The position numbers and the translations under genes are program-made. From positions 1 through 64,000 of the IMG/VR virus record IMGVR_UViG_3300045995_000532: DNA of 64,000 nt; one strand, written 5' to 3'. Origin of the DNA: a virus. Below, piece by piece: positions 8,729 to 53,496 of the stretch (positions are counted from its first letter, which is position 1; each line of letters starts with the position of its first letter). Below the pieces are notes generated by a model that saw only the letters and a list, made by a program, of their open reading frames with translations, ran no database searches and was not told the origin of the DNA.

Positions 8729-8760
8729 GCGACGTTCTGAGCGACCCGTCAGAACGTCGC
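8729..8760 (+). promoter_or_regulatory. Inverted-arm site copy 1
   Basis: GCGACGTTCTGAG-CGACCC-GTCAGAACGTCGC, intergenic. Confidence 0.7.
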
Positions 8761-8781
8761 TTCAACCGAGAGGAGGACCGT

Positions 8782-9729
8782 TTGCTCACCATCACCCACA
8801 CGCACGAGGCCGGCACGCTCATCGCCGGGACCAGCCGGGGCGACGGCACGGCCGCCATCCTGAAGGCCAACGGGTGGCGTTGGGGGCGGAGCATCTCCGC
8901 CTGGTATGTCCCGATGTCGAGGGACCACCTGCCCAAGTTCCACGTCATCGAGCGCACCGAGAGTGCGCTCACGGCCGCGGGGTTCGAGGTCGAGACCGAC
9001 GTCGACCGCGCCTACCGCCCGACGGCTGAGGTTGAGGCTGGGAAGATCGAGCGACAGGCTGATCGTGTCGCAGCGCTCGACGCCAAGGCGGACCGAAAGA
9101 GCGCCACGGGCGACGCTGCATGGGCCAACGCTGAGGCCGCAACCGCTCGACTCCCCGACAACGGCCAGCCGATCTTGGTTGGCCATCACTCCGAGCGCGG
9201 CCACCGTGCCGCGCTCGCCAAAGCTGACAGTGCCATGCGCCGGTCCATCGACGCCACCGAGGACGCGACCCGCGCCCGAGCGCGCGCTGACGCTGCCACC
9301 TTCACGACTGACGCCCGCTACCGACCCATCACGGTGGCCAACCGCATCGAGACGCTGGGAGCGGAACTGCGCAAGATGGAGCGGCGCATCGTCGAACAGC
9401 GCTACGACACCGAGGTGGGCTACGTCGACGCCACCGAGGCGCAGAAGGAAGCCCGCGCGACCGCCCTTGCCCCGCACATGGCGGAGAAGCGCGACCAGAT
9501 CGCCTACTGGGTGGCGGTCCGCGCTGAACAGATCGCCGCCGGGAAAACCGGTGACTTCTCCCGAGACAGCGTGAAGAAAGGCGACGGAGTGAAGATCCGC
9601 GGCCGGTGGGTCAAGGTCGTCCGGGCCAACGCCAAGACGGTGTCCGTGACCACTGGCTACACCTGGACCGATACCGTGCCCTACGCCGAGATCCAGCAGC
9701 ACGAGCGGCCCGCCGAGGTGCCCTCGTGA
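8782..9729 (+). CDS. DUF3560-family protein
   Basis: GQPILVGHHSERGHR signature; GAGGAGG SD before TTG. Confidence 0.85.
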   Translation: MLTITHTHEAGTLIAGTSRGDGTAAILKANGWRWGRSISAWYVPMSRDHLPKFHVIERTESALTAAGFEVETDVDRAYRPTAEVEAGKIERQADRVAALDAKADRKSATGDAAWANAEAATARLPDNGQPILVGHHSERGHRAALAKADSAMRRSIDATEDATRARARADAATFTTDARYRPITVANRIETLGAELRKMERRIVEQRYDTEVGYVDATEAQKEARATALAPHMAEKRDQIAYWVAVRAEQIAAGKTGDFSRDSVKKGDGVKIRGRWVKVVRANAKTVSVTTGYTWTDTVPYAEIQQHERPAEVPS

Positions 9730-10435
9730 GCACACTCACACCCGCCGCCGCGACCGAAACGGAAGCGGAAGTGATACGCGCAGCCATGATCGCGCGCCGG
9801 TCCGGTCCGGGTTGGCGTGCGAAGGGCTCTGACCTGCGTTGGTCGCCCCTTCTTGCCGGTTGGATGTGGATGTTCGAGCACGCCACCGGATGCTTCGACA
9901 ACGTGCTCATCCCCTACCTCGACAGATCGGAGAGTGATGCGAACCGTCACTGACTTCCGTCGCGCCGCCGTTCCCGGGTCCACCTGGGAGTGCGTGAACA
10001 ACTGGCACCCGCACGTCTCTGGGCCACGAACGATCACGATGGCCAAGAAGACCGTCCTCAGCTACAACGGAACCAGGGTCGACGGCACCGCGATCGAGAA
10101 CCGTATGGAGTTCCCAAAGGCCGACGCCTGCCGGATCGAGGGCAACACGGTGTCCTTCCTGCACTACGCCCGCATCGAGCCGTCCGGCAAGCCGGTAGGT
10201 ACCCCAGAGGTGGCCTACTCGTGGACCCTGGTGCCCGCGTGAGCGACTCCTGCTCCCTTTGCGGGTCAACGACGGACATCTGGTACGAGACTCCGGGGGG
10301 TAAGCCGGCGTGCAAGAAGTGCGCCATCAAGAAGTTCCCGCCTCCCGTCGTTCCCGTCTAGGGCGCGTCTTCCGACCACCTGTCGGTGCCCCGTGCTACC
10401 TCTGAGGTACCCCTTCTCGTGAAAGGAGCACCACG

Positions 10436-11402
10436 ATGACCGATCCACAGACCATCCGGGTGAGCGACCCGGCGGAGTTGCTGGCGCTGATCCCGCACCA
10501 GCTCGGCTTCCAGCCCCACGAGAGCGCCGTGGCCGTGTCGCTGCGAGGACCGCGCGGACAGGTGGGGATGATCGCCCGCGTGGACCTCGACGGCTTTGCC
10601 GATCCTGAGTCTGGGCCGCAACTGGCCCGCCAGATGATGTCGCACCTCGTCTCCGACGGTGCGCACCGCGTCTTCCTGGCGCTCTACACCGACGACCCTC
10701 GCGGCGCCCTGTCTACCCTCACGGCCGCCAACATCCGCGACGCCGCGCTGCCGTTCTTCGACGACGAGGTGAAGGTGTGGGCGGTCCAGAGAGGAGGTGG
10801 GGCGCATCGCGCCAGTCGGACGGGGCGCGACGATCAACGCCTCGCGCGCCGCGGCCCGATGGGCAGATCACCGCAGCGTCGACCCGTACACCATGTCGCA
10901 CTGGCGCCTGGACGGTTTGGCCACCTGGCGAGCAGCACTCGCTGCACCGGAGATCACCGCGGCCACGGCCGGGCGACTCACCGCCGCGCTCCGTGACACG
11001 GCGGTCCGCGACGCGGTGATCGTGTCCCTCGTGCCCAACCAGGGCACCGTGGCAGAGGACTCGCTGACCATGGGCGCCACCCCGAACGGCGCCATCTCCA
11101 AGGCTCTCGACACCATCATGAGCCCCACCAATGGGGTCATGATGGACCCGGAAACCGCCGACGCGGCAAAGTCGGTCCTCACGGCCGTGACCGCCCACAC
11201 CGGCGAGGCGGCGTCGACGACGCTCCTCGGCTTCCTGGCCTGGTGGCAGAACGATGGCCCCCGCGCTGGCGTGCTGATCGACCGAGCCCTGACCACCGAC
11301 CCGGACTACCGGTTCGCCCACCTCCTCAACGACTCGCTGGCCTCTGGGATGGCGCCTGGCTGGATTCGTCGTGGCATCCCCGATCTCGGGATGTCGCTTT
11401 AG
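10436..11402 (+). pseudogene. DUF4192-family gene, frameshifted near 10785
   Basis: N-half PAELLALIPHQLGFQPHES..RVDL in one frame, C-half VRDAVI...AWWQNDG..A..LIDRAL..DPDYRFA.LL in another. Confidence 0.75.
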
Positions 11403-11464
11403 CAACTTCACCACATGGCCCCACCAACCGGACGGGTCATTCGTGTCTACAGACAGGAGCACAC

Positions 11465-12475
11465 ATGAGTCGCGAGACCCTCACCGACCTCAACACCAAC
11501 ACGCTGATCGGCTACACCGACAAGCGTGGCAAGGCGTGGCACTACCGGGCCGACGAGCAGGGCGGCGAGTCGAACCACTACCCGGGCGCCATCCCAGCGG
11601 CCGACGTGCGGCGGCGACTGTTCAACTGGGAGGCGGTGGAGGGTGAGATCACCGCGAACGCACTCACGCCGGACGGCGTCCTGTCCACCACCGACCCGGA
11701 CCGCAAGGCCATCATGCGGTCGGACACCGGCGCCATCCTCGGCATCTTCAAGAGGGGCTACGTTGCCCACCAGTTTGACCCGTGGCTGATCCAGAACGTC
11801 GAGAACATCCTCGACGCCGACCTGGCCATCGGGTCGGCCGGGCTCCTGTCCGGTGGCGCCAAGGCGTGGGTGCAGGTCGAGATGGTGGACACCATCACCA
11901 CCCCCTCCGGCGTCGCCTTCCGCCCCTTCCTGACGGCAGCGACCAGCATGGACGGTTCGCTCGCGTCGACCTACCTGGTCGGGGCGCAGGTGGTGGTGTG
12001 CGACAACACCCTGTCCGCCGCACTGGGAGAGAAGGTGGCGCGCGTCAAGGTGAAGCACTCCGCCAGGTCCCTGTCGAAGATCAACGACGTCCGAGACGCG
12101 CTGGGCATCGTCCACGCCGTCGCCGACGACTTCTCGGCCCAGGTGGCTGCGCTCACCGCGCAGGTGGTGACCGACCAGCAGTGGAAGGACTTCGTCAAGG
12201 CGTACACCGCCGGGACGTCGGACTCCAAGCACTCCCTGACGATCGCGGAGCGGAAGACCGGCGAGCTGTTCCAGTTGTGGAACTTCGACGAGCGGGTGGC
12301 CCCGTGGAAGGGTTCCGCGTACGGCGTCCTCGCCGCGGCGAACACCCACACCCACCACCTGGGCACGGTCCGCGGTTCGTCGCGGGCCGACCGCAACATG
12401 GAGCGGGCCATCACCAGCGGCGTCGACAAGATGGACCGCGACATCCTCGCGCTCCTGGCGACCGTGTCCGTCTGA
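11465..12475 (+). CDS. DUF932-family phage/plasmid protein
   Basis: AWHY..., SAGLLSGGAKAWVQV, SMDGS, VVCDNTL, KVKHS motifs. Confidence 0.85.
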   Translation: MSRETLTDLNTNTLIGYTDKRGKAWHYRADEQGGESNHYPGAIPAADVRRRLFNWEAVEGEITANALTPDGVLSTTDPDRKAIMRSDTGAILGIFKRGYVAHQFDPWLIQNVENILDADLAIGSAGLLSGGAKAWVQVEMVDTITTPSGVAFRPFLTAATSMDGSLASTYLVGAQVVVCDNTLSAALGEKVARVKVKHSARSLSKINDVRDALGIVHAVADDFSAQVAALTAQVVTDQQWKDFVKAYTAGTSDSKHSLTIAERKTGELFQLWNFDERVAPWKGSAYGVLAAANTHTHHLGTVRGSSRADRNMERAITSGVDKMDRDILALLATVSV

Positions 12476-12877
12476 CCAAGTGTCGGAGCCTCGCGGCACA
12501 CTAACCCTGAAGGAGAGGTGACCTGATGATGAAGCACCCCATCTGGCGGGCGCAGCGGTGGATGTTGGACCTGCTGAACCCACCGTCGCAGACCTGGCGC
12601 GGGCGCCGCAACGACCGCAAGCGCACCCGCGGCAATCTGCTCATGGGTGGGTACGTCCTGGTCAAAGAGATGAGCACCACAGAGAGGAAACCATGAAGGT
12701 ACGAGTGACCTGGAACGAGACGATCGAGAAGACCGCGACGGTCGACGTTCCTGACCTGAGCCTGTTCGAGGACGATCCTGACAGCGTGCTCGATTCGATC
12801 CTCGACGACTGCACCGACTCCGAGGAGGAGGAGTACGCAGTCCTCGATCGCAGCGTCATCCAGTTTCTGGTGGCCCC

Positions 12878-25768: not shown

Positions 25769-26809
25769 ATGCCCATGCCGAGGGAGGTACTCGCTCGCAG
25801 GATCCAAGCGATGCCCGGCGCCAAAACCGGTGACCGGCTCTTCGAGGGCACCACATACCCGCGCAACTGGGATGAGTACGTTGGCCAGAAGTTGGCCGTG
25901 GAGCACATCAAGGGCTCGTGCGTGGCAGCGAAGATCCGCGGCGAGCGACTCGGCCACGTGCTGATCGCAAGTGGTGCACACGGGATCGGCAAGACCGCAG
26001 TCGCGAAGCTGATCGCCCAAGAGATGGGCGTCGGGCTGCTCGAGGTCCAGGGTGCGATGAACCTCCGTGAGGGGCTGCGCGTCTTCGCGTCCATGGCTGA
26101 CGGTGACATCCTGTTCTGGGACGAGATCCACCTAGCCGTGGTCGGCGGCAAAAGCAGGGCGGAGTGGCTCCTGCCGGTGATGACGGAGGGGCACATCGTG
26201 ACCCCCACGGGCGCTGTGATGATCCCTGACGTCACGATCATCGGCGCCACGACGGACGCTCAGAAGCTCCCGCAGACGATGCTGTCCCGCTTCCTGATCA
26301 ACCCGGTGCTCGTCCCGTACACCGACGCGCAGGCACAGGCGATCGCGAAGGTGTCCGCCGGCAAGATCTTCACCCACCCGTCGCTGGATCTGCCGAATGA
26401 CTGGGTGCTGCGAGTCATTGCGAGGGCCGCCAACAACAACCCGCGCGCGATCGCCAAGCTGCTCAGCACGCTGCGTGACTCCGCCCTGGCGGGCTTGTGC
26501 TTGCGGACACCCAACGGTGGGTACTCGCTGGACACGATGTTCCGGTGGGCCGGCGTCACTGCTGACGGGCTCGACACCCTCGCCCAGGACTACCTGATCG
26601 TGCTGTCCACCCAGCTGAACGGCAAGGCCGGCAAGGACGCCATCGCGTCAGCACTGGGGGAGCCGACTCTGCCCCGGTACACCGAGCAGCTGCTCAAGGA
26701 CAAGGGGTTCCTGACGGGCACCTCCAGCGGTCAGGAACTCACTGGTGAGGGTGCTGCTCGCGCCCTCCAACTCACGCTCGCCAGGATCGCGCAGGAAGAG
26801 GAGAAATGA
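25769..26809 (+). CDS. ruvB: RuvB-like Holliday junction AAA+ ATPase (divergent)
   Basis: PRNWDEYVGQ, AAKIRGERLGHVLI, GIGKT, ILFWDEIH, IGATT, SRF, PRAI, GLD, C-terminal wHTH. Confidence 0.85.
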   Translation: MPMPREVLARRIQAMPGAKTGDRLFEGTTYPRNWDEYVGQKLAVEHIKGSCVAAKIRGERLGHVLIASGAHGIGKTAVAKLIAQEMGVGLLEVQGAMNLREGLRVFASMADGDILFWDEIHLAVVGGKSRAEWLLPVMTEGHIVTPTGAVMIPDVTIIGATTDAQKLPQTMLSRFLINPVLVPYTDAQAQAIAKVSAGKIFTHPSLDLPNDWVLRVIARAANNNPRAIAKLLSTLRDSALAGLCLRTPNGGYSLDTMFRWAGVTADGLDTLAQDYLIVLSTQLNGKAGKDAIASALGEPTLPRYTEQLLKDKGFLTGTSSGQELTGEGAARALQLTLARIAQEEEK

Positions 26810-27104
26810 CCAATCACATGTTCACACTGCACCAGGCGGGCGCCAACCCGAGGATGACGCAGGTGAACTTCCCGAACGTGACCTTCAAAAAGGTCACCAT
26901 CACCCGCCCGCCCCGCAAGGCTGAGGTAGACACCATTCGGAGAAGCAGGATCCCCGAGAGTTCCGCGCATCCCTACGAGCCGGACGGGGTTCGTAGCCCG
27001 CTGCATACCGACCCGATGTGCCGCGCTTGCAGTCAGCCCAAGAGCCACTACCTCCACACCATCTCGGACCTGACCTTCCATGCAGGGGACATCCTGCGCG
27101 CAGC

Positions 27105-27136
27105 GTGACGTTCTGACCGATACGTCAGACCGGCGG
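27105..27136 (+). promoter_or_regulatory. Inverted-arm site copy 2
   Basis: GTGACGTTCTGAC-CGATAC-GTCAGACCGGCGG, at a gene end/intergenic gap. Confidence 0.6.
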
Positions 27137-27180
27137 GGTCCTCTTGGGCTCCGTCTTTTCCATGCCTAAAGGGACGTTAA

Positions 27181-28200
27181 ATGAGTGAACTCGGCAAGTA
27201 TCTTGAAACCACCGGCAAGTTGCCGGCGGATACCGTCCTGGGTGACCTCACCATCACCACCGTCACAGAGGGGGCATACGTGAGAGAGGATGTCGTGGGA
27301 CTGTTCGAGGATCTGGACCTGGACCCATCGTTCATCCCGCCGACGTCGACCGCCATCGACGCGTTCAACAAGGCGACTCGCCGCAAAGATCTGCAGTACG
27401 AGATGCCGAACGGTTCGATCGGATTCATCCAGGTAGACCAGGTCACCTCACCAAACCCGGCTGAGATGGTCGGGCGAATGCTGACCCGCCGGGAAATGGT
27501 TCGGTCCAAGTCGATCCTCGACTTCTCGAAGGTGGGCGAGATCCACTTGTACCGCGGCCCCCGCCGAAGCGGACCCACCAGGCGGGTCGACGACACAGGC
27601 GCCCGGCTCCTGATCTCACTGGCAAGCAACGACCCAGAACTCAAGATCAGCCCGGCAGAGAAGCACACGATCACACAGTTCGCGTACGGGATCCAGCAGG
27701 ACTACGAACGCTACTTCTCCACCCTGGATGGCAACGCGATGCGCAAGCTCTTCCGCTGCTACCAGCGGCGCCGGCTCGCGGCGACGAAGATCAAGGACTC
27801 GTTGTACTTCATTCCCGTGCAGTTCTCGGGTGAACTCGCCCGGCTCAAGGAGGCTGCTGACAACATCTCTGGATGTACGTTGGACCTAGTGCCGCTGGTC
27901 GATATGGTTGCCCAGAGGGATCACGTCATCAGGACCTTCCAAGCAGAGACGGAGGAGACGATGCGCGCTCTGGTCGTCGAACTTCAGGAGGCTCGATCGA
28001 AGGGGCGCGTCTCCGTGACCATCCTCAGCCGGCTCCGTCAGCAGTTCGACGACCTGATGGGCCGCGTAGACACCTACACCGACGCACTCGGTGAGGCATC
28101 GATCCGACCAAGCAGCACAGCCGACGTGGTCAAAGCTGCATTGGCAGCATTGTCGAGTGACTTCATCAACACCAACAGAAAGGATCACGAATGGCTATGA
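27181..28200 (+). CDS. Hypothetical protein (possibly DUF6744/DUF3150-like)
   Basis: 339-aa ORF; DAFNKAT and LYFIP segments; family call tentative. Confidence 0.6.
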   Translation: MSELGKYLETTGKLPADTVLGDLTITTVTEGAYVREDVVGLFEDLDLDPSFIPPTSTAIDAFNKATRRKDLQYEMPNGSIGFIQVDQVTSPNPAEMVGRMLTRREMVRSKSILDFSKVGEIHLYRGPRRSGPTRRVDDTGARLLISLASNDPELKISPAEKHTITQFAYGIQQDYERYFSTLDGNAMRKLFRCYQRRRLAATKIKDSLYFIPVQFSGELARLKEAADNISGCTLDLVPLVDMVAQRDHVIRTFQAETEETMRALVVELQEARSKGRVSVTILSRLRQQFDDLMGRVDTYTDALGEASIRPSSTADVVKAALAALSSDFINTNRKDHEWL

Positions 28201-33266: not shown

Positions 33267-33843
33267 TTGGGCAGCTCGTCATAGTGCTGACCGGAAATTG
33301 CACCCTGGGCGCGACGGATGAGCACGCACATCCGATCGGCATGGTTCCGCGCTTGTGTGAGTAGGTCGATCGCAACAGACACCGCCACGGCCGGATCGCT
33401 ACCGTCATCCTCGCCGACGGCGTACATTTCCAAGGATCGCTCAAGTCCCTCGCCGAGCTCACGCAGCGCCTGGTCGAGCCCGAGGTTGCCGAGGTTGCCG
33501 AGGATCGAGTACACGATTGGTGCCGGGTGGGCCGCCGTGATGGCCGCGTGGTTGATCGCGCGGATCGCTTCGTAGGCATCCTTCGAGTGCGCAACGATGT
33601 CGCTCATGAAGTCGCCTCATCCTTCATCTGCGCTGCCACAGCTTCCGTGAGCAAGACCTGGAGGCAACCGCAGTCCTCGCCGGCGTCGTGGTGGAAGCCA
33701 ATGCACCGGTCATCCGCGCACCCGCACTTGTCACCGCCCCAGACACCATCCGCCCAGCCGAGCGCTCGTGCGTAGGCAGCCATTGAGATGCCGGCATGGT
33801 CGAGTTGCTGGCGAGCATCCTGGTTCAGTCGGATAGTGCTCAT
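33263..33843 (-). CDS. Two small hypothetical genes (33263-33607, 33604-33843)
   Basis: Coupled; second has GDKCGCADDRCIGFHH..CGC Cys/His cluster. Confidence 0.65.
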
Positions 33844-34364
33844 GCGTCTCCGCTCCCCTGCTTGATCCCCTGCTTGACGGCCACGCGCAACGCCGCGATT
33901 ACGCCGGCCGTGCGCGTCACCCTCGACGCCTCTCCCCCAACCTTCACGATCATCTCGTCGAGCACGGCCAGCTCCGGCGCACGGAACCGAAGCGTCAACG
34001 GAGCGACGTTCCCGGCCACTGCCTTCCGGCCTCGTGGTGCCCGCGCGCCGATCTGCAACGCGTGCGTCAGCTCAGCCACGGCCTCGTCCTGGTAGTCCTC
34101 GCATGTCCACGCCACTACCTGGGCATAGGACGGCTGAGCCTCGACGCCGAAGATCATCCTCCGCAGCTCGTCGTACAGCGGCTGCGGGATCCGGACCGCG
34201 ACGATCGTCAGCCCATCGACGGCCACCACGGGCCGCCCGCCACGGCCCCGCGACGGACGCTGCGGCGGCGCCTTCTTCTTGAACACCAGGTTGGTCGGCG
34301 GCGGGAGGAGGTCGTCAGTCTCGTCCTCCAGTCGCGACGGAACGAACGCTGGGCGACGATTCAC
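33840..34364 (-). CDS. ParA partner, probable centromere-binding protein with two RHH-like repeats
   Basis: Coupled to parA; VAVRIPQPLYDELRR and LTLRFRAPELAVLDE patterns; flexible basic N-terminus. Confidence 0.6.
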   Translation of the reverse strand: MNRRPAFVPSRLEDETDDLLPPPTNLVFKKKAPPQRPSRGRGGRPVVAVDGLTIVAVRIPQPLYDELRRMIFGVEAQPSYAQVVAWTCEDYQDEAVAELTHALQIGARAPRGRKAVAGNVAPLTLRFRAPELAVLDEMIVKVGGEASRVTRTAGVIAALRVAVKQGIKQGSGDA

Positions 34365-35296
34365 AGCGACACCTTCTCTCCACGTCCCTCGTAGACGGCC
34401 AACCGTGCCAGAACCTCTCTCGTCAAGTCCTGGTAGTCGTTCGCGAGACCAGACGGGTCCCGGGTCCAGAGCTGCTGCTCCTGCTTCTCCCCTGCCGCCA
34501 GGCGCTTGAGCCGGCCCTTCTTCTGCAAGTCCGATTCAACCACCAGCTCGTTGGGCATCATGTGCTGCTGGCGCAGATCGATCGACGAAGCCTTGTCGGT
34601 CCGCACGATGCTGCGGAACGCCGTCACTCCGGATCCTTCGAGCAGAATGGAGAGGTTCTCCAGAGCCTTCCCGTTTCGGCGCGTCGCCCGCGGGTTCACG
34701 TTGAACAGGACGATCCCCAGCAGATCGATGCGTGCGCCACGCTTCCGTGCACGCAGCCAGCGGCCCGCCAGCAACTCGACGCCGTCGAACGATGCCTCGT
34801 CGTCGCAGCACGGCACGATCAGGTATCGCGACACCTCCAGGAGCACGTCGAGCAGCGGCGCATCCCCCGGGCCGGAGTCGATCAGCACCAGGGCGTAACC
34901 CTCGCGGTCGCACAAGTCGCCAAGGGTCGTAGCGAAGTTCTCGGCGATGTTGATGCCTGTCTGGCCGGCGGTCGCGACCATGGATGCCATCGCGGCCAGT
35001 AGCGGGCCGCCGGGTACGACGTCGAGACCAGGACGCACATCACGAACTGGATCGAGCGCCTCGCCATACTGCAGGGCCATTGCGAGCGACTTGCCCTTGT
35101 CCCCCGGTACGCCGAGGTCGTTGCGCGACACGTTCCCCTGCTGGTCCGCGTCGATCACCAGGACTCGACGCCCGGGTCTGCAGGTCATGCCCGCCAGGGC
35201 GGCCACGATCGAGCTCTTGCCCACGCCGCCCTTCTGGTTCGCGAGAAGGATGACACGCGCAAGCGAGCCCTCCGCCTGCTTCGCTGTACGGCTCAT
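34361..35296 (-). CDS. parA: ParA-family partition ATPase
   Basis: NQKGGVGKSS, VLVIDADQQGN, VLIDSGP. Confidence 0.93.
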   Translation of the reverse strand: MSRTAKQAEGSLARVILLANQKGGVGKSSIVAALAGMTCRPGRRVLVIDADQQGNVSRNDLGVPGDKGKSLAMALQYGEALDPVRDVRPGLDVVPGGPLLAAMASMVATAGQTGINIAENFATTLGDLCDREGYALVLIDSGPGDAPLLDVLLEVSRYLIVPCCDDEASFDGVELLAGRWLRARKRGARIDLLGIVLFNVNPRATRRNGKALENLSILLEGSGVTAFRSIVRTDKASSIDLRQQHMMPNELVVESDLQKKGRLKRLAAGEKQEQQLWTRDPSGLANDYQDLTREVLARLAVYEGRGEKVSL

Positions 35297-35609
35297 CGAT
35301 TGACCCACCATCTCTCGTAACGATCTGCGCGGCTGGCCTCTCACTCTATTGCGTCGAACGTTGGTCGATGTAGCGACACGCCGTAGCAGCGCTGCCCGCT
35401 CCGCCATCGCGTACGCCATACATCCGCCCCGCTTCCGCGTACTACACCCACCAAGACTGCCCGGTTGCGGCACGCCATAGACGGGGCAACTCTCGCGCTG
35501 TCTATCGCTCTTCCCGCCTGACTGCGGCGCGCACCCTGTGCCGTCCTGTTCTCTATCGTGTTGTGGTCGATAGTGTGGTCTATATAGCGGTTAGTACACC
35601 GGGAATCCA

Positions 35610-37469
35610 TCACGCCGCAGCCAGTGCCCAGGCCATCCCGGCGGGGGAGGCGTCGTCAGGCGGCCACCAGTAGTCCTCGTCAGGCGGGGAGGACTCCGGC
35701 TCGTGCCGGGCCAACCACGTGCGCCACGCCCGGCGGTCAGCTGCGTACGCACGCAACTGGATGTCGATCTCGTCGAGCACGCCCAGCAGCTCTGCGGCCG
35801 CGGCGAGCCGGCCGGGCCGGGCCACCAGCCCGGCGGAGGACCGGTCGACGAGGCCGTAGGCGGCCATCGTGTCGATCGCGGCCGCCACGGCGGTCCGCGA
35901 GATGCCCGTGGCCGGCACGAGCGTGGTGATCGTCTTCGCCCGGCCCGCCTCGAGCGCCTCGAACACCAGCGCCGCCACGTGTCCCATTACTCGGAACACC
36001 GGCCGCAGCGCGTAGGCCTTGCCCCGGTCCCACCGCAGATCAGGCAGCATCTCCTGCGCGCTGGGCGGGATCCTCAGCTCGTACAGGTCCGCGCGCTCAC
36101 CCCGGCCCGGCTCGACCAGATCCACCCAGCCATCAGGATCAGCGGCCAGCTTGCGCAGTTCACGCAGCACGGCCGCCACCGTGGAGTAGTGGGCGCCGAC
36201 GGCGACCGCGATGTTCCTGACACCGAACTCCACCCGGCGAGAACCCGTCTTGCTGGCAGCCTCACCGAGCGCCCTCAGCACGAACCGGGGGAGGTGGCCT
36301 CGTCTCCCGGAGAAGCGATGCTGCTCGACAGTACGGAGTGCGGTTCGCCAGGTTCGGATGTACTCATGCTCAGCCTGCGTCCCACCCCACCGGTGTGACT
36401 TAGATTCGCTTGTGTGGGATTTGCGATCATGGGTATCCCCGCTGCTCAGGGCGGCTTTCTCTCGATGTGAGGCGATGAACGCCTGTGCTCGACGCCAGTC
36501 GCGCTCCAGGGAGGCGCTCCGCTGGTGGGTGCCGTATCGGGCGTACATGCCCGCCAGACCCGGCCAGCGCCCGTCGGCCAGGCGTACGCCGACATCGGAC
36601 AGGGACCACCCAGCCCGCGCAGCGCCAGCAATGACGGCTTGGCGAGCTTCGGAGGCCGACGGGTAGCGGGCGTGGTCGTAGACACCGGACTCCGCGATCA
36701 CCCGCACCCGGGAACCGAGCTGGCGTCTAAGGCCGGACGGGGTCTCCGGCTCAAGGTCGACCGGTACTAGCCGTTCGCGCCATGCCGCGATCTCTGTAGA
36801 CAGGCCCTCGCGGATCTTGTCGAGCACGGCCATGCCGTTCCGCCTGTGCACCATGTCGTAAGCCAGGGCCGAGGACATGGTCAGCTCCTGGAACCCACCC
36901 GACTTGTGCTTCGCCCCAGGAGGCCTGATGCAACCCGTCTTCAATGACCGGTGCGGCCCGGCGTCGAGTGTCGGGTAGATGGCGGCGAGAGCTTCAACGA
37001 TCTCTCGCGCCTGCTCGTAGGGCATCCGGTCGGCGAGAGGCAGGTAGATATGCCGACCGCCGGTGGGGGAGATGTCTGTGATGACTCGTGCACCCATGCT
37101 GGTCAGCCACGTGACCAGGCGCTTCTCGTCGGCGTCCACTGCGTCCCGGCCGGCACGATCTGCATCAACGGGTACACCGCCCGAGTACGTCATGCGGCGG
37201 TTGCTGCCGACGTCCAGGTCGAAGAACAGGGTCCGGCAGCAGCCGTCGTTGCCGTACGTCCTGATGGCCGCAGGCTGGGAGGGGAGCCGGTCCGTCAAGG
37301 GCCGTTCATCTCTGGACCGGTACTCAATTTCGCCCCGTGAGCACTTGACGCCGATCCGCACACGTGGTTGGCCAGCGAGGTGCGGAGCGAACGCTGGCCA
37401 GGCCTCCCGAGGCGTCAGGGCGTCGAGATGTCCAGAATCACCCGGCGTGTCGTAGGCAGGGTGTTGCAT
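35610..37469 (-). CDS. Putative plasmid replication initiator (primase-polymerase-like N-domain, HTH C-domains)
   Basis: FFDLD, SPTGGRHIY, GCIRPPG motifs; C-terminal HTH-like segments; adjacent to parA. Confidence 0.7.
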   Translation of the reverse strand: MQHPAYDTPGDSGHLDALTPREAWPAFAPHLAGQPRVRIGVKCSRGEIEYRSRDERPLTDRLPSQPAAIRTYGNDGCCRTLFFDLDVGSNRRMTYSGGVPVDADRAGRDAVDADEKRLVTWLTSMGARVITDISPTGGRHIYLPLADRMPYEQAREIVEALAAIYPTLDAGPHRSLKTGCIRPPGAKHKSGGFQELTMSSALAYDMVHRRNGMAVLDKIREGLSTEIAAWRERLVPVDLEPETPSGLRRQLGSRVRVIAESGVYDHARYPSASEARQAVIAGAARAGWSLSDVGVRLADGRWPGLAGMYARYGTHQRSASLERDWRRAQAFIASHREKAALSSGDTHDRKSHTSESKSHRWGGTQAEHEYIRTWRTALRTVEQHRFSGRRGHLPRFVLRALGEAASKTGSRRVEFGVRNIAVAVGAHYSTVAAVLRELRKLAADPDGWVDLVEPGRGERADLYELRIPPSAQEMLPDLRWDRGKAYALRPVFRVMGHVAALVFEALEAGRAKTITTLVPATGISRTAVAAAIDTMAAYGLVDRSSAGLVARPGRLAAAAELLGVLDEIDIQLRAYAADRRAWRTWLARHEPESSPPDEDYWWPPDDASPAGMAWALAAA

Positions 37470-37635: not shown

Positions 37636-37854
37636 CTAGGCGGAGGCCTCCTCGCGGGCGCGGACCGGAGCGCGAACGTCCGCCACCTCTGCGGACACCC
37701 CCTCGTGCTCGGCCAGGATGGACGCGACGTAGTCACTGAGGTACTGGTAGCCCTCACGTACGGCGCTAGCCCGGACGGCGGCCCCAAGGGGCACCGATGT
37801 ACGGATCAGCAGCGCGTCCCGCTGCCCCTTGTACGGCCGTCCCAGCTTCGCCAT
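37636..37854 (-). CDS. Small RHH/CopG-like regulator upstream of rep
   Basis: GRPYKGQR..LLIR...LG..VR..A...G...LSDYVASIL. Confidence 0.6.
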   Translation of the reverse strand: MAKLGRPYKGQRDALLIRTSVPLGAAVRASAVREGYQYLSDYVASILAEHEGVSAEVADVRAPVRAREEASA

Positions 37855-37936
37855 GGGTCCACCTAAGCCCACCTCGATACCGAAAAGCGCAAAAGTCGCG
37901 GCGTGTCGCGGACGAGTTCACCCGGTACAGACGACT

Positions 37937-37968
37937 GCGACGCTCTGACGGGTCGGCCAGAGCGTCGC
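37937..37968 (-). promoter_or_regulatory. Inverted-arm site copy 3
   Basis: Minus strand GCGACGCTCTGGC-CGACCC-GTCAGAGCGTCGC, intergenic. Confidence 0.7.
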
Positions 37969-47878: not shown

Positions 47879-48379
47879 TCAGAAAGGAGGCTCCGAGTCG
47901 TTCGCCCACGGGTCAGCAGAGTCGTTCGCGTCCGCAGCGGTCGCGCGGGCGTCAACGATCGTGCAGTAGTAGCCGAGCGTGCCGTCCTTCTTCTTCTGCG
48001 GTGCCTGATGTGCAACAAGCACCTCGCAGACAAGCCCTTCAACGAGGTCGGTGTCGACGTCCTGGCCGACCTCCACCGGAGCGCCCTGCAGCGACTCGTA
48101 CAGCACCTTCGCCACCGAGTCGGCCCGGGTGGACACCTTCGCGTCGGAGTCGACGTTGATGGTGTCCCCGGAACTGTCGCCGGCGGTGATCTTGAAGTTC
48201 CAGCGCCACTTGTCGAACGTCGCCTTCTGTCCCACACGGGCCGTGCCGTTCTTCACCGCGGCGTGATGGGCCTTGTACTCGAACTCGACCTTTGTCTCCA
48301 CCACGGACTCCAGGCGGGCGCGGAGCCAGCCCTCCTCGAAGTGGTATTCGGACTCTTCAACGACTGTTGCCTTGGCCAT
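47879..48379 (-). CDS. Probable ssDNA-binding protein
   Basis: Beta-rich core, acidic DPW...EPPF C-terminus, between ATPase and primase-helicase. Confidence 0.7.
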   Translation of the reverse strand: MAKATVVEESEYHFEEGWLRARLESVVETKVEFEYKAHHAAVKNGTARVGQKATFDKWRWNFKITAGDSSGDTINVDSDAKVSTRADSVAKVLYESLQGAPVEVGQDVDTDLVEGLVCEVLVAHQAPQKKKDGTLGYYCTIVDARATAADANDSADPWANDSEPPF

Positions 48380-48411
48380 GCGTTCCTCTTCCTACGTGCG
48401 TGATCGAACGG

Positions 48412-49623
48412 TCAGCTGAGCGCCTTCTTGCGGGCGGTCACCGCGCCGGTGTGCTCGTCGTGCCAGTCGGCCTTGTCCTTGTGAGCGATGTAGAAGTCCT
48501 TCAGTCCTTCAGGACCATCGATCGCCGTGATGGCCTTGATCCGCTCGAGGTAGTCGATCTCGTCGCTGGCGACCACCCCGCCGAGCTCTTCGGTCGTCAA
48601 CGCGATCGCCTCGTAGTGAGCCAGTTCCCCCTCAGAGACAACCGGCTCGGCCGCGACAGCGGTGATGGCATCCTCTGCAGCGACCTGGGCGGCGATCGCA
48701 GCCTTCGGATCCTCCTTCTTCACGGCAGCCTTCTTGGCCGCCTTGCGCGGAACCTTCGTGGCGTCCGGCTCTACCGCACCACCCTTGATGTCCGGGCCGG
48801 CGACGTCGGCAGCAACCTGGTCAGCAGGGGTCTGTTCGGTCACTACAGTGGCCTGGCCGTACTTCGCAGCCTGACCTGCCAGAGCGTCGGTGATCTGAGT
48901 GAAGTCGCTGGACTTGAACTCCACTGACGTCTCATCCAGCAGGCCCGCGGGGGAGCGCAGGATCGGGAACTTCGGTGACGCACGCCAGGAGATCTTGCGG
49001 ACAACCTTGCGCGAAGCCTGGGCCTTGGCCTTCTCGGCATCGCTCGCGTTATCGTCAACGCCGATGCCCCAGTCGGTGTGGATCCACCCAATGAAGGGAA
49101 ACTCCTTGGGCAGGTCGATCTTCGTGCCGCCAATCAGGTCAGGCTCGTACTCCTGAGAGTCAAACTTGTCCTTGAGGTGCACGTTGACGATGACGTGCAA
49201 CGGCAGTCGCTGGAGCTTGTCGAGGATGGTGGACATCGACGCCTTCAGGTCGCCCCACGCCTTAAAGCCATCCATGGACGTCATGCCATCACGGCGCATG
49301 ATGCCGTTGGCCACGTGAGCGGACAGGACGGAGAAGGTGTCCACCACGACCGTCTGGTACGGGAAACTCGGCCGCTGGGCCTGCAGGGCCAGGTAGTCGA
49401 GGGCCTCGTTGGCGGCCTTCTCGGAGGGGATCTCGATGTACGGCGTGCCGGTGATCGCCAGCGATGCGGCACCACCACGGTCGGCCATCAGGAAGATGGG
49501 CGCGGGTGCCTGCGCGGCGAAGGGGGTCTTGCCAGACCCAGGCTGGCCAAACAGGAGGATTCGGTAGCGGTCCTGTCCGTCCAAGAACTGACTGAACGAG
49601 GCCGTCTTAATCGTTATCGGCAT
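48412..49623 (-). CDS. AAA_24/Sak4-like ATPase (recombination)
   Basis: LLFGQPGSGKT, TVVVDT, WGDL; Ala/Lys-rich C-extension. Confidence 0.82.
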   Translation of the reverse strand: MPITIKTASFSQFLDGQDRYRILLFGQPGSGKTPFAAQAPAPIFLMADRGGAASLAITGTPYIEIPSEKAANEALDYLALQAQRPSFPYQTVVVDTFSVLSAHVANGIMRRDGMTSMDGFKAWGDLKASMSTILDKLQRLPLHVIVNVHLKDKFDSQEYEPDLIGGTKIDLPKEFPFIGWIHTDWGIGVDDNASDAEKAKAQASRKVVRKISWRASPKFPILRSPAGLLDETSVEFKSSDFTQITDALAGQAAKYGQATVVTEQTPADQVAADVAGPDIKGGAVEPDATKVPRKAAKKAAVKKEDPKAAIAAQVAAEDAITAVAAEPVVSEGELAHYEAIALTTEELGGVVASDEIDYLERIKAITAIDGPEGLKDFYIAHKDKADWHDEHTGAVTARKKALS

Positions 49624-50503
49624 CGAGTTTCCCTTCGATTGATGTGCGCATGAGATAATCGACTGCATTTAGTAGGAAATCGGCACTATCTCGAAACCCG
49701 CCCAGCGCCCTGTTACACGCTCCGCAGAGCAGGCCCCGCACGTACCCGGAAGTGTGGTCGTGGTCGATTGAAAGACGGCGGTCGTCCTCAACTCCAGAGC
49801 AGATGGCGCAGACACCATTTTGGTCGGCGAGCAGCACATTGTATTCATCAGGGGTTATGTTGTATAACGCCATGATGTAGTTTGACCGAATCTGATCGCG
49901 CAGGTCCGGATCATCGCGATACTTCTCACGTCGCTTCTTCCGTCGGTCCGATGCCCATTCCGGGTCAATTCGTGACTTGTGGGCTTTCCAATCCGCGTGC
50001 TGAGCCCTCATGTAGTCTCCGTAGTCACGGTCGGCTACCCTGCGCTTAGTCCGAAAACAGGAGACGCACAGTTCCGTCGCGCTTGAGTATTGTCGACGCT
50101 CCGGGTGGCATGTCGAAGCAATCAGACTTACGCGCACCTTGGCCAGATCCCCTGGCACGTGACTTTCTTGACCGTATGCTCTTCGTGGGCGGCCGTGAGT
50201 TCTTCGATACTCCGCGCCTATGGCGCGCTGCCGAAGAACAAAGTCAGGATCCTGTCGGCGCCTCGCCCTGTAGCAAGGCTGACATAACCCCTCGCCAGTA
50301 ACCTTGGCGCGCTCAGGGTGGCAAGTTGCCCGGGGTGACGTCTTCCGGCGAGCTCGCTCAAGTTCAGCGAAGACCGGATCGTCACGCCGGCGCCTAGCTA
50401 CATAACACGACTGACATAGCCCGTCACCAGTAACCCTCGCCCGCAGCGGGTGGCATGTCGCGCGAGGAGGAGACGACCTTGCGACATCAAGCTTCGCTGT
50501 CAT
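49607..50503 (-). CDS. Endonuclease VII-family (homing-type) endonuclease with three N-terminal Cys/His repeats
   Basis: QNGVCAIC, IDHDH..G.VRGLLC..CN..LG; lower GC than neighbours. Confidence 0.9.
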   Translation of the reverse strand: MTAKLDVARSSPPRATCHPLRARVTGDGLCQSCYVARRRRDDPVFAELERARRKTSPRATCHPERAKVTGEGLCQPCYRARRRQDPDFVLRQRAIGAEYRRTHGRPRRAYGQESHVPGDLAKVRVSLIASTCHPERRQYSSATELCVSCFRTKRRVADRDYGDYMRAQHADWKAHKSRIDPEWASDRRKKRREKYRDDPDLRDQIRSNYIMALYNITPDEYNVLLADQNGVCAICSGVEDDRRLSIDHDHTSGYVRGLLCGACNRALGGFRDSADFLLNAVDYLMRTSIEGKLDADND

Positions 50504-50718
50504 GCGATGTCTCCGTTGGTTGCCTTGGGATACTTCTTCCGCGGGTGCGTCTTCCGGTACTCGAGCACCCATGCCGCCTGGTAGGCCCGCATCTGCTGCG
50601 CATACACGGGGTCATCCCGGCGCCGGCGGGCGTTGTAGCAGGACGGGCACAGTCCGTCCCGCGTCACCTGCGCTCGTGACGGATGGCAGGTCGCCCTGGG
50701 GGCGTTCGCTCTAGCCAT
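50500..50718 (-). CDS. Stand-alone copy of the Cys/His repeat
   Basis: RATCHPSR..VT.DGLCPSCY.ARRRRDDP. Confidence 0.7.
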   Translation of the reverse strand: MARANAPRATCHPSRAQVTRDGLCPSCYNARRRRDDPVYAQQMRAYQAAWVLEYRKTHPRKKYPKATNGDIA

Positions 50719-50724
50719 GGGTAT

Positions 50725-50973
50725 TTACGGCTCCTTTTCGATAACCCCGATGCGCCGCAGATCGGCAACAAGATTCAGATGAGCCCGATGGTCCGATGGG
50801 CCGAAGTGAGTTCCCACCGTGCCGTTGCCGTCCTCGCCGTAAATGACGACCCCGCACTTGGTCTTACGCATCCGAACTCCACAGTCGAGAAGCCCCTTCA
50901 GGAGTTCCTTCGATTGCTCAGGCAGGCCCGACCGGGCGATCAGTCGGCTCAGGTCCGGCCTAGGCGGGGGCAT
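50725..50973 (-). CDS. HicA-like small protein
   Basis: KELLKGLLDCGV....TKCG.......G..V..H..PSDHRA..NL.ADLRRIG. Confidence 0.55.
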   Translation of the reverse strand: MPPPRPDLSRLIARSGLPEQSKELLKGLLDCGVRMRKTKCGVVIYGEDGNGTVGTHFGPSDHRAHLNLVADLRRIGVIEKEP

Positions 50974-51706
50974 CTGGCTCACTGATCCGGTCAATCTCGT
51001 CGACGAGGCAGGCGATAGCCTTCTCGAGGTCATGCACGCTGGCTGCATGCCACAGGTAAGTCAGCGCGTTCCCGCAGTTGAAGTTCCAGTGCCGGGCGAT
51101 CTGGACGCACTCCACACCAGGACCGCCCGTCCACTGGGATCCGCTGGGGCCCATCACGTCCGCCACCGCAAGCGCCAGGCGCGCCTCGTCGTCTGCGACC
51201 TGAGCCGTGTAAGCCGAAGCGTCCGCCTCGGCCCACGCGTCCGATTCGTTGCGAGCTTGCAGTGCGCTGGTCACACGGCTCACCGGTGTGTCCGCGACAG
51301 CGCGGATGAGCTCCCTGGTATTGAGCAGCACCTGTGCAGTCATAAGCTGGTTGACTGCGCGGAAATCATCGAGGTAGCCGGCCTGAAGCCCAAGCGCGGC
51401 GGCCACGCTCAGTTCGGCGACCGATCGAGCGTCATCCTCCCAGCCGGGCAGCAGGCATATGGCCTCCGCATGGGCAGCGATCCAGGCCACATCCTCACCG
51501 AGCGACTCGCGTGCACTAAAGCGATGCGTGCCGTCGGCGAGTTCCTCGAAGGACACCCCTTCGGGCAGGATTCCGCGATCCAAGTCCCGCTCGACAGGCT
51601 CGAACACGTCATGCCCCCAGTCGCAGAGCACACTGAAAGCCGTCGTGGATGCAGGGAAGTTGAACCGGGGGACACCGACCATGGGGCCGGAGATGAAGAT
51701 CCTCAT
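50960..51706 (-). CDS. DUF4406 + DUF3310-like fusion
   Basis: IFISGPM.G...FNFPA, AICLLPGWE; C-terminal VEC.QI.....FNCGNA..Y.W...DLEKA. Confidence 0.75.
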   Translation of the reverse strand: MRIFISGPMVGVPRFNFPASTTAFSVLCDWGHDVFEPVERDLDRGILPEGVSFEELADGTHRFSARESLGEDVAWIAAHAEAICLLPGWEDDARSVAELSVAAALGLQAGYLDDFRAVNQLMTAQVLLNTRELIRAVADTPVSRVTSALQARNESDAWAEADASAYTAQVADDEARLALAVADVMGPSGSQWTGGPGVECVQIARHWNFNCGNALTYLWHAASVHDLEKAIACLVDEIDRISEPDAPA

Positions 51707-52626
51707 CAGTCGTCAACACCTTCCTGGAAGTCGGGCAGTGGGGCCTGGCCGCAGACGTCCCGCCAGGCGCAGAAGTTGCACTTCTTGGTGTCCGTCGTCA
51801 TGGGATGCACGCCGGCGCGCTGAGCGCGGATGTACTCACGGATGTGCACCATGAGGCGGCGGTAGTGAGCCTCAGTGCGCTGACCGGTGTTGTGGGCCTT
51901 GAACTCGCCGTTGCGGATCGCCAGCCACCTGCCGGCACGTCCCATCGGCGGATGATCTTCGGGGGTTCCGCCCCACATACTCAGCCCCTTGGACTCGACA
52001 CGGTCCATAAGGTCGTAGAACGACGGCATGGCCAGGAAGTCCGTCCAGAACGCATCTTGCAAGGACGCGTAGGAGTAGACGGTCCATTGGTTCGCGTATT
52101 GGAGATGGTCAGGCCGAAGGCCCGTTTTTAGGTCATCTACTGAGAGGTACGGAATGCCATAGTTGAAGCGAATCCCGAGGCGGTCCACGGTGCCGTGCAA
52201 GGTGTGGTCTTCGCCGTCGATCCTCAGTGGCACGTTGAAGGTGTGCTCGACGCCGAGCAGGACGAACTTGTCGTGACGGATCCACTCCGCGGCCGCCTTG
52301 ATACCCGCCCTGCCCTGAGCAAGATCCAAGGCCCAGGTGTGCCCGCGCACCCACTCGTTGGGGAACCCTTCACTGATCTCTGCGGCGTGCTCAGGGGACC
52401 AGTAGTGCTCGAAGGTCGCCAAGGCCACCTTCTCAGCGTCCTCGCGGCCCTCATGGTGAAGCTGCTGGAAGATCTGCATGGCGTAGTGGATGTGGGTGCC
52501 GAGGATCGTCGCCGACAACCTGGCCGGCTCGATGCCGTTGGCGCGGCCGAGGATGTCATAGTGCTGGCGCGCCGCACAATACGAGAAGGACGACAGTGAA
52601 CTCTGGCGGATGAGGATTCGACTCAC
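51706..52626 (-). CDS. PD-(D/E)XK (RecB/Cas4-like) exonuclease
   Basis: C..., GTHIH, GTVDRL, DDLKTG, Q..VY, CNFCAWRDVC. Confidence 0.88.
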   Translation of the reverse strand: MSRILIRQSSLSSFSYCAARQHYDILGRANGIEPARLSATILGTHIHYAMQIFQQLHHEGREDAEKVALATFEHYWSPEHAAEISEGFPNEWVRGHTWALDLAQGRAGIKAAAEWIRHDKFVLLGVEHTFNVPLRIDGEDHTLHGTVDRLGIRFNYGIPYLSVDDLKTGLRPDHLQYANQWTVYSYASLQDAFWTDFLAMPSFYDLMDRVESKGLSMWGGTPEDHPPMGRAGRWLAIRNGEFKAHNTGQRTEAHYRRLMVHIREYIRAQRAGVHPMTTDTKKCNFCAWRDVCGQAPLPDFQEGVDD

Positions 52627-53272
52627 GCCCCCCCGGTGGCATGCGCATTGCGCTTGCGCAGGCAAACCTCGACGGAATCGGGGATGACGTCCTGCCTGCT
52701 GGTTTCACCGGCCATCGCATGCAGTTCGCACGGCCGACGGCCCCACCAACCGTGGTTGCGGCAGCTCGGGTCATCACCCTCCTGATGAGCACAGGAACAG
52801 CACCAGCAGTTGGTGCGCTGCACCATGGACCACGACGTCGTAGTGAGGTGTCGTTGCTCGATGACACCGTCATCCCAGCGCACCTCGTCCCACTCCATGA
52901 CCCCGGTCGCGGCGTCGTAGTGGTAGGCGGTGCGCTGGGATGGCTGGGGGTTGATGTTCGCCTTGTTGTAGGCGATGACGTTCACCACTCCACCCTGGAC
53001 AGCAGAACGTGCCAGCCCGCGCACAGCGGATGCCTGCAGGTGGGGAACCTGTCCTTGTGGTCGACGTCACGATGCCACTGGGTGAGGACGGCCTCGAACT
53101 CGACAAATGGGGAGAAATCCGCGGGCTCCACCACGGTGGACAGGCGGTCCTCGAGGATGTCCATCGCCGTGTTGATCGCGCCGGCGCCGATGGGGTTCGA
53201 CGGGTACTGCTCAGCGAGGAACTCGGCCAGGCGTGAAACCTGAGACTCGAGCGTCTCGTGGGTGGTGGGCAT
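52623..53272 (-). CDS. Two hypothetical genes (52623-52985, 52982-53272)
   Basis: GGAAGGAG SD at 53272 start, coupled junctions. Confidence 0.65.
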
Positions 53273-53292
53273 CCGTCTCCTTCCATGGGTAC

Positions 53293-53346
53293 AAAAAGAG
53301 GGCGGCACCCACACCGCGGCCGAGGCCGTTCGTTGGATGCCGCCCT
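53293..53346 (-). terminator. Intrinsic terminator in the leader of the replication operon
   Basis: Minus strand AGGGCGGCA...TGCCGCCCT-CTTTTT, ~20 nt before the first start. Confidence 0.7.
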
Positions 53347-53464
53347 TGGCTCTTCAGCTCTGGGGGCCGTGGGAACCTCGTGGTTCGCCGCCGGCGACCT
53401 ACTGCTCAGGTCGTGATGAAGTTGTGGTCTGTACCGTAGCTCCCGCCTCCGACGCTCTTCGGCC

Positions 53465-53496
53465 GCGACGTTCTGACGGGTCGGTCAGGGCGCCGT
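53465..53496 (-). promoter_or_regulatory. Inverted-arm site copy 4
   Basis: Minus strand ..GGCGCCCTGAC-CGACCC-GTCAGAACGTCGC, intergenic. Confidence 0.7.

Follow-up and report, generated by a model that had tools for sequence, protein, structure and literature searches.

Nine dispersed copies of a 32-bp imperfect palindrome in non-coding gaps of an actinobacterial phage-plasmid, possible operator sites of one regulator

The window considered here is the first 64 kb (64,000 nucleotides) of the virus record IMGVR_UViG_3300045995_000532 (102,678 bp, and 100% complete according to CheckV). The virus is an actinobacterial phage that also carries plasmid-maintenance genes (a phage-plasmid), and the only transposase found in the record belongs to an IS21 insertion. 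Four palindromic sites are present in the window (Table 1), all at the coordinates that an earlier note had given for them. The phrog_12268 gene stops 8 nt before site 1, and a DUF3560 gene starts 21 nt after it. The first 4 nt of site 2 overlap the stop codon of an ORF (26806-27108), with a DUF6744 gene 44 nt further on; a terminator-like hairpin directly adjoins site 2, its 5' stem sharing bases with the degenerate right arm. Site 3 is 25 nt past the stop of a ParE-toxin gene and 64-82 nt ahead of the first gene of the rep-parA operon, which is RHH-like. Site 4 occupies a divergent gap, between a leftward recombination/replication arm (start 53272) and a rightward two-gene island (start 53641). 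Near this fourth site, a half-site-like sequence is present at 53450, and 53512-53543 forms a very weak palindrome.

Table 1. Palindromic sites and neighbouring features in the window
Feature	Position	Strand	Description
Site 1	8729..8760	+	Strongest copy; 12 perfect pairs; spacer CGACCC; leave-one-out score 37.9
Site 2	27105..27136	+	Left arm good, right arm degenerate; spacer CGATAC; leave-one-out score 27.4
Intrinsic-terminator-like hairpin	27137..27165	+	10-bp stem followed by U-run (fold of 27095-27185)
Plasmid module	33840..37469	-	Rep (619 aa), ParA (370 aa) and 174-aa partner; Micrococcales plasmid backbone
rep-parA gap	35474..35609	-	ATAGAC-type repeats, direct and inverted, in a cluster of their own
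RHH-like ORF	37636..37854	-	72 aa; immediately downstream of site 3; RHH by eye, no Pfam match
Site 3	37937..37968	-	Full palindrome; C at position 7 of each arm; leave-one-out score 30.8
Site 4	53465..53496	-	One consensus arm, one degenerate arm; leave-one-out score 28.9

When the whole record was scanned with a PWM, as the earlier note had proposed, a 32-bp imperfect palindrome was found in nine copies, five of them past the end of the window (at 76726, 79097, 90524, 90753 and 90829). These nine non-coding sites were the only positions of similar score, and none was in coding DNA. Their leave-one-out scores range from 20 to 38, every other position in the genome scores 9.5 or less, and the top score in 100 first-order Markov genomes was 19.3. 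Chance is excluded as an origin of the family, because the motif had no match in any of 100 shuffled sequences and because the PWM scores are far above background. Each arm contains the core CGACGYTCTGA, and 8 bp separate the two cores; the layout may thus be described as 13-6-13, or as 11-8-11 if only the conserved core is counted. The spacer is CGACCC at four sites and CGATAC at two, the three others being different, and one arm is degenerate at five of the nine sites. The arms of site 1 form 12 perfect pairs, the left arm having G instead of C as its innermost base.

The non-coding placement described for the four sites in the window extends to all nine (in a genome with a coding share of at least 82% by a rough gene call), and a start codon follows each of them at a distance of 21-192 nt. 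Three sites cluster in a divergent control region at 90.5-90.9 kb, the outer two being 305 bp (about 29 helical turns) apart, and one is in the divergent gap at 53.3-53.6 kb. Copies 90524 and 90753, which are the weakest of all, are less than 340 bp from the strong copy at 90829, and such weak copies beside a strong one in a divergent gap are the usual layout of cooperative operator arrays. The same motif stands at the head of the replication arm, of the late arm and of the small rightward island, and its copies in internal gaps precede the DUF3560 gene, the DUF6744-Lsr2 block and the RHH-rep-par block. The arms are symmetric and the spacer is the asymmetric part of the site. It had been thought always to point along local transcription: this is true of all four sites in the window, but across the genome it applies to seven of the eight callable sites, 76726 being oriented the opposite way. 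The bias is suggestive and not statistically significant.

Inverted arms of 11-13 bp flanking an asymmetric spacer of 6-8 bp, with CGACCC common to four copies, are reminiscent of loxP, dif and FRT sites, and it had been suggested that the sites might be recombination cores allowing modules to be excised or inverted. We regard this as highly improbable. The statement that the window has no recombinase proved to be correct, and applies equally to the whole record, in which Phage_integrase (PF00589) and Resolvase (PF00239) had no match (control genomes were positive); since neither a tyrosine nor a serine recombinase is encoded anywhere in this complete record, the recombination reading is weak. 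The degenerate arm at five sites and the spacers, which are not all identical, are further differences from recombination sites of the loxP, dif and FRT type, and with the sites in mixed orientation, recombination between them would cause essential modules for replication or structure to be deleted or inverted. The sites have no known resemblance to the AT-rich dif cores of Actinobacteria.

Might the palindromes act instead in the transcript, as stem-loops between cistrons? They could then serve as terminators or attenuators (factor-dependent or 'I-shaped'), as sites of RNase processing, or as 3' or 5' stabilisers, the conserved loop perhaps being recognised by an RNA-binding protein. Such roles would fit the strictly intercistronic positions of the sites (8-68 nt past upstream stop codons) and the prevailing co-orientation of the spacer, which would form the loop. 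Stable sense hairpins are predicted at four copies (z = -3.8 at site 3, and z = -8 at 79097, where the stem extends to 17 bp), a true terminator adjoins site 2, site 76726 comes after the terminator of the capsid gene, and L007, a relative, carries a terminator-like hairpin at the place that corresponds to site 79097. However, what has been conserved is the sequence of the arms rather than their pairing. Standard pairs made up 81.2% of cells, compared with 82.5% in shuffles (408 of 500 shuffles being equal or higher), and the covariation score of the arms was under the shuffled mean: base pairing is not maintained by covariation, and each half-site is conserved in its own right. The compensating change that had been noticed in copy 3 is literally there, at arm position 7, but this position is freely T or C, and the arms are unmatched at it in seven of the nine sites (a T/C mix in five, T against G in two), so the change is no evidence for selection on pairing. 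As to folding, the sense strand clearly gives the better hairpin at three sites and the antisense strand at three. At five of the nine copies (27105, 53465, 76726 and 90524, and 90753 on either strand) the sense fold is -13.5 kcal/mol or weaker, and the same five have no more than six contiguous pairs in the 32-nt fold. No U-tracts followed the site hairpins in a terminator scan of two regions and in flanks that were read directly, the only U-run being in the separate hairpin after site 2; moreover, three copies are within a divergent promoter region, and Rfam gave no match. Given the lack of both covariation and a sense-strand energy advantage, a dimeric DNA-binding protein is a better fit than an RNA hairpin, and we consider a role in the transcript doubtful.

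The strict palindrome pattern had no match in 185,579 species genomes (GTDB) and none in IMG/VR, and the sites are therefore not part of a host regulon; a host REP element or MITE-like repeat is ruled out on the same grounds. The pattern did occur in 10 metagenome contigs, as a single copy in each. No protein of this phage matched any of these contigs by tblastn, and seven of the 10 have the same flanks and seem to represent one gene family. A further scan of IMG/VR, with an asymmetric 18-mer, gave four matches, which were set aside as all represent one unrelated coding sequence without the palindrome. When 24 kb of the window was compared by megablast with phage and plasmid collections there was no match, and a portal scan of GTDB genomes found nothing. 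Relatives were recognised through their capsid and portal proteins (L007, G001 and G002, at 45-60% amino acid identity), and in these three, all of them at most 60% identical, neither the motif nor any repeated palindrome family was present; the operator reading discussed below gains no comparative support from these nearest relatives.

What, then, might the nine sites be? We see about an even chance that they are operator or stoperator-like sites of one phage-encoded regulator. A master operator was the other alternative offered by the earlier note, and it is the reading best supported by the shared motif, the independent half-sites and the presence of weak copies beside strong ones; the operator function itself is inferred, as are protein binding to the motif, the repressor role and the identity of the protein. 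Dispersed repeats of operator type have precedents in actinophages and phage-plasmids (PMC9283540, PMC4351075). One sequence-specific, two-fold symmetric protein of the phage-plasmid would bind all nine copies. In the divergent regions at 53.3-53.6 and 90.5-90.9 kb, it would occupy a strong site and its weaker neighbours and control the outward promoters, and the spacing of the outer sites in the latter region could allow looping. In the five gaps inside long operons, it would exert control at a local promoter or else, in the manner of stoperators, be a roadblock to elongating RNA polymerase. One regulon may in this way take in the replication and late arms as well as the early genes and the plasmid rep-par operon. 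Certain features speak against the operator reading: site 1 is only 8 nt from a Shine-Dalgarno sequence, leaving no room for a promoter, and the conserved asymmetric spacer, co-oriented with transcription at most sites, is unexplained by a simple symmetric dimer. A simple sigma-70 consensus scan of the two divergent regions found no promoters.

Our best guess for the regulator, and the top candidate, is the RHH-like protein encoded next to site 3 (Table 1). HTH_3 and sigma domains were absent from the whole record, and no recognised repressor family was found. Several small ORFs appear RHH-like or HTH-like by eye. Further candidates are the products of 33840-34364, 52982-53272, 53641-53886, 76361-76648 and 91502-91780, and Rep. 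Those adjoining the sites had no match in Pfam, PHROGs or the ESM Atlas.

The plasmid module deserves separate attention. Its ParA matches AAA_31 and CbiA, and the gene for the 174-aa partner overlaps the ParA stop codon, a gene order that is conserved in plasmids p110066 and pTL2A. Homologues of the Rep protein are plentiful in Micrococcales plasmids, the closest having 61% identity. There is a small chance that a regulator from this module (the RHH-like protein at the head of rep-parA, or the ParA partner) binds the dispersed palindromes. If so, maintenance, prophage silencing and perhaps partition would all be run from the same nine sites, and the phage-plasmid would parallel, in Actinobacteria, the arrangement of N15, the polarity residing in the asymmetric spacer of an otherwise symmetric site. 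It seems quite unlikely that the sites are dispersed parS-like centromeres, of which N15 is the precedent, bound by the ParA partner, with possible side effects on transcription. That idea agrees with the phage-plasmid character of the genome (a Rep of Micrococcales-plasmid type, ParA, two toxin-antitoxin pairs and no integrase), with two RHH-like strand-helix motifs discernible by eye in the partner protein, with the absence of both ParA and the motif from the related genomes G001, G002 and G003, and with the N15 centromere, which consists of four separate IR sites (PMC7205306). However, partition does not need placement at gene starts or clustering in divergent control regions, and the partner protein has no homology to any known centromere-binding family. 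Moreover, the ATAGAC-type repeats of the rep-parA gap are in an ordinary location for a par operator or centromere, at a place where the related plasmid pTL2A has palindromes of its own, and they are more likely to serve that purpose than the dispersed palindromes are. In the two plasmid loci compared, no similar palindrome was found, and half-site matches occurred at the background rate.

By analogy, the arrangement belongs to a known kind, represented by the C1 operators of P1, the stoperators of L5 and the 17-bp repeats of Cluster O. The C1 repressor of P1 has well over a dozen operators over a plasmid prophage of about 94 kb, through which it controls replication, late-activator and accessory operons; these operators are 17 bp long and asymmetric, some of them are paired, and the repressor gene is known. 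One immunity repressor acting at dispersed operators would be the point of likeness, whereas the sites described here are palindromic, and no homology to P1 was found. In Cluster A mycobacteriophages, stoperators bring about genome-wide silencing by one repressor of the L5 gp71 type (PMC9283540). As with the present sites, one short motif recurs many times over the genome, mainly in short intergenic gaps of long operons; stoperators are also placed at the early promoter and have an orientation tied to the direction of transcription, features that may have parallels here. However, a stoperator is an asymmetric site of 13-14 bp to which a monomer binds, and a genome has about 25-35 of them. The present site is a palindrome of 30-32 bp in nine copies; its asymmetry is confined to the spacer, and seven of eight sites obey the orientation rule. 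The 17-bp repeats of Corndog (Cluster O) are likewise dyad-symmetric, spread through an actinophage genome and in many cases intergenic, and although their function is unknown, a dimeric protein is predicted to bind them; they have a 7-3-7 layout, more than 30 copies, about one-third of these in genes, and no orientation bias (PMC4351075). The present family differs in its layout (11-8-11 to 13-6-13), in having nine copies, none of them in a gene, and in placing three of these at a divergent control region. The IR sites of N15 are reportedly dispersed among phage genes. In N15, also a phage-plasmid of ParA type, the palindromic centromere sites (IR1-4) are separate copies rather than an array (PMC7205306). 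SopB of N15 is a ParB-family HTH protein, whereas the partner protein here is unclassified and the rep-parA gap has a separate repeat cluster.

If the nine sites are operators, they would reveal no new principle. They would define the regulon of an actinobacterial phage-plasmid of which the nearest sampled relatives have at most 60% amino acid identity, a regulon that would span all modules (early genes, plasmid rep-par, replication and late genes). The logic of one repressor with many dispersed sites, familiar from P1 and Cluster A, would thereby be extended to a palindromic site and to a Micrococcales-type host, and the sites themselves would provide a direct handle for finding the master regulator.

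The four palindromes that the earlier note had picked out in the window (sites 1–4) were all recovered, and a half-site search and a palindrome position weight matrix run over the whole 102,678-bp record, the latter as that note had proposed, added five more (named below by their start coordinates). With a matrix that omits the site being scored, the nine copies score 20.0–37.9 bits and every remaining genome position 9.5 bits or less; the top score in 100 first-order Markov genomes was 19.3, and when repeated palindromes were sought de novo, this 32-bp family alone was recovered. The nine copies are thus a real, statistically solid family of cis-elements. The 13-6-13 layout first described holds for its interior, an invariant 11-8-11 core in which each arm reads CGACG + Y + TCTGA, but the extra base that it adds on either side of an arm's core is weakly conserved.

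Palindromes, gene blocks (from a rough codon-usage gene call made for this analysis) and neighbouring features; L005, L006 and L034 are stretches of this record, L009 is plasmid pTL2A
Feature	Position	Strand or direction	Setting
Site 1	8729–8760	+	gap before DUF3560 gene
Site 2	27105–27136	+	gap before DUF6744–Lsr2–MazEF block
Site 3	37937–37968	-	gap before RHH–rep–parA operon
Site 4	53465–53496	-	divergent gap, 53.27–53.64 kb
Site 76726	76726–76757		gap before 95-aa ORF that follows capsid-gene terminator
Site 79097	79097–79128		gap before scaffold–capsid genes
Site 90524	90524–90555		436-bp divergent gap, 90.49–90.92 kb
Site 90753	90753–90784		same gap
Site 90829	90829–90860		same gap
Early arm	2.8–29.5 kb	rightward	
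Replication arm	53.27 down to 30.9 kb	leftward	
Two-gene island	53.64–54.17 kb	rightward	
Structural arm	90.49 down to 54.1 kb	leftward	
Island split by IS21 element	90.9–94.7 kb	rightward	
Further block	to record end	leftward	
Intrinsic terminator	27137–27165		directly 3' of site 2
GGTACAGAC	37924–37932; 53427–53435	+; -	near sites 3 and 4
ACAGGTRA	L006:6567, 6726, 6871 (genome 90567, 90726, 90871)	+, +, -	90.5–90.9 kb control region
12-bp tandem duplication	33854–33877		3' end of ParA-partner gene
95-aa ORF	L005:12361–12648 (genome 76361–76648)	-	
1303-aa ORF	L034:791–4702 (genome 82791–86702)	-	
IS21-type element	L006:7900–10187 (genome 91900–94187)		beyond the window
pTL2A hairpin pairs	L009:11615–11643/15574–15602; L009:12995–13027/14979–15011		intergenic

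The record, of which the window forms bases 1–64,000, is a single contig of 64% G+C, classed as 'linear' in IMG/VR and rated 100% complete by CheckV. Its replication arm encodes a PD-(D/E)XK nuclease, an AAA_24 protein, a Toprim–DnaB primase-helicase, three DNA methylases, a ParE/YefM toxin–antitoxin pair and a plasmid module (an RHH-like ORF, Rep, ParA and a 174-aa partner encoded beside parA). Because capsid, portal and tail genes stand beside this module and there is no integrase, the element is, by its gene content, a phage-plasmid. The Rep family is present in 204 actinobacterial plasmid records, with top matches (56–61% identity) in Actinotalea, Cellulomonas and Cellulosimicrobium, and the order Rep–ParA–small partner is kept in plasmids p110066 and pTL2A; the host, we infer, is probably a member of the Micrococcales. 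The 1303-aa ORF is probably a large terminase split by one or two inteins, since it contains LAGLIDADG_3 and Hom_end homing-endonuclease domains and its pieces align separately to the terminase-region proteins of relatives.

At least 82% of the genome is coding by the rough gene call. The non-coding placement noticed for the four window copies extends to all nine (site 2 alone runs into a stop codon, with its leading 4 nt), and the chance of seven independent loci all being non-coding is 0.18^7 (c. 6e-6). On the local sense strand, a start codon follows every copy at a distance of 21–192 nt; four copies lie in two divergent control gaps and five in short gaps within long operons. The two weakest sites are neighbours of a strong copy within a divergent gap, a layout like that of cooperative operator arrays, and 90524 and 90829 are 305 bp (29.0 helical turns) apart. 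The three ACAGGTRA copies in this region occupy AT-richer patches beside its three palindromes, while the genome's other five are all coding. The 9-mer GGTACAGAC has just two copies in the 102.7-kb genome, both non-coding, within 30 bp of their palindromes and in opposite relative orientation. The 95-aa ORF, RHH-like by eye at its N-terminus, is inserted past the capsid-gene terminator and ahead of the next structural gene, 77 nt 3' of site 76726; it is moron-like, as complete relatives G001 and G002 (found through capsid and portal proteins) have no homologue. Only about 15 nt separate the strong terminator beside site 2 (10-bp stem and U-run) from the gene 27181 ribosome-binding site, so the DUF6744–Lsr2–MazEF block must rely on read-through or an unseen promoter.

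Might the sites work as hairpins in the transcript? Strong stems are possible at sites 1, 3, 79097 (17 bp, z = -8) and 90829, a genuine terminator abuts site 2, the capsid terminator precedes site 76726, and relative L007 has a terminator-like hairpin at the place of site 79097. The spacer, said earlier to run with transcription each time, does so at seven of the eight callable sites genome-wide. However, in a sense-strand alignment of all nine copies against a full 13-pair helix, standard pairs filled 81.2% of cells, compared with 82.5% when 3' partners were shuffled among sequences (408 of 500 shuffles reached at least the observed pairing), and the covariation score fell below the shuffled mean, although with nine sequences this test has little power. 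The change in copy 3 that had been read as compensating loses its force as evidence of pairing: most arms carry T or C at arm position 7, and agreement there between the arms of a site is limited to two of nine sites. Folded as 32-mers, three copies are clearly better on the sense strand and three on the antisense, the rest differing little or not at all; five have sense-strand energies of -13.5 kcal/mol or weaker (for 90753 this is true of both strands), with at most six contiguous pairs. From these results, it is the sequence of each half that is conserved, not pairing between halves, and this is the hallmark of DNA binding by a protein with two-fold symmetry; a hairpin function seems unlikely.

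The earlier note had weighed a master operator against recombination sites, and of these the operator is favoured. The halves are conserved independently, and the lack of a recombinase in the window extends to the whole record, where searches for Phage_integrase and Resolvase domains were negative (control genomes were positive) and the sole transposase is the IstA/IstB pair at 91.9–94.2 kb (IstA with rve and Mu-transposase C-terminal domains; IstB matching IstB_IS21 at E = 1e-70). Moreover, the arms are degenerate, the spacers differ and recombination between the observed orientations would be destructive, so that site-specific recombination is scarcely credible. Dispersed centromeres are improbable, if less so. 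Phage-plasmid N15 shows that separate palindromes, its IR sites, can serve in this way (PMC7205306), and here ParA is present, with a partner carrying two RHH-like motifs by eye; but the 137-bp rep–parA gap (35474–35609) holds a separate cluster of direct and inverted repeats of the ATAGAC type, and pTL2A of Cellulosimicrobium cellulans has plasmid-specific palindromes in the equivalent position, making this gap the more conventional candidate for a par operator or centromere. The 3' end of the ParA-partner gene contains a perfect tandem duplication. Repeated intergenic palindromes do occur in plasmids with the same Rep family, as pTL2A carries two pairs of hairpins, identical within each pair, among its DUF4192, ParB-N-terminal, DUF6573 and DUF3560 genes.

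We therefore propose, with moderate confidence, that the palindromes are operator or stoperator-like sites of a predicted phage-encoded, symmetric DNA-binding regulator; the remaining probability falls to something other than operators, hairpins, centromeres or recombination sites. Searches of the record for sigma-70 and HTH_3 domains were negative, and the ORFs flanking the sites have no match in Pfam, PHROGs or the ESM Atlas. None of 185,579 species genomes contains the strict palindrome pattern; a host regulon or host REP family is accordingly unlikely, and the phage itself probably encodes the binder. Directly 3' of site 3, a 72-aa ORF shows by eye the strand-helix-helix pattern of RHH repressors, and an RHH gene with its own operator just upstream is a common autoregulatory layout. 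G001 and G002 have neither plasmid module nor motif, whereas G002 retains homologues of the HTH-like ORF 91502–91780 and ORF 94309–94686 (which flank the IS21 element here and are direct neighbours there). This co-occurrence weakly favours a genome-specific binder, for example the RHH-like protein, above the HTH-like one that G002 shares, its weight being limited by the 87 of 133 called genes that are likewise specific to this genome.

That a single protein-binding motif can recur at scattered positions is already well documented, as in the C1 operators of P1 and the conserved inverted repeats of phiC31. Cluster A mycobacteriophages have stoperators (PMC9283540), and those of Cluster O have 17-bp repeats with dyad symmetry and of unknown function, in more than 30 copies (PMC4351075). 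No sequence homology to the Cluster A, Cluster O, P1, phiC31 or N15 systems was found, and no relative in the present collections carries the motif. Unlike these, the present family is long (30–32 bp), of few copies, strictly intergenic and palindromic with an oriented spacer. It is spread like a regulon over all the modules of a novel phage-plasmid.
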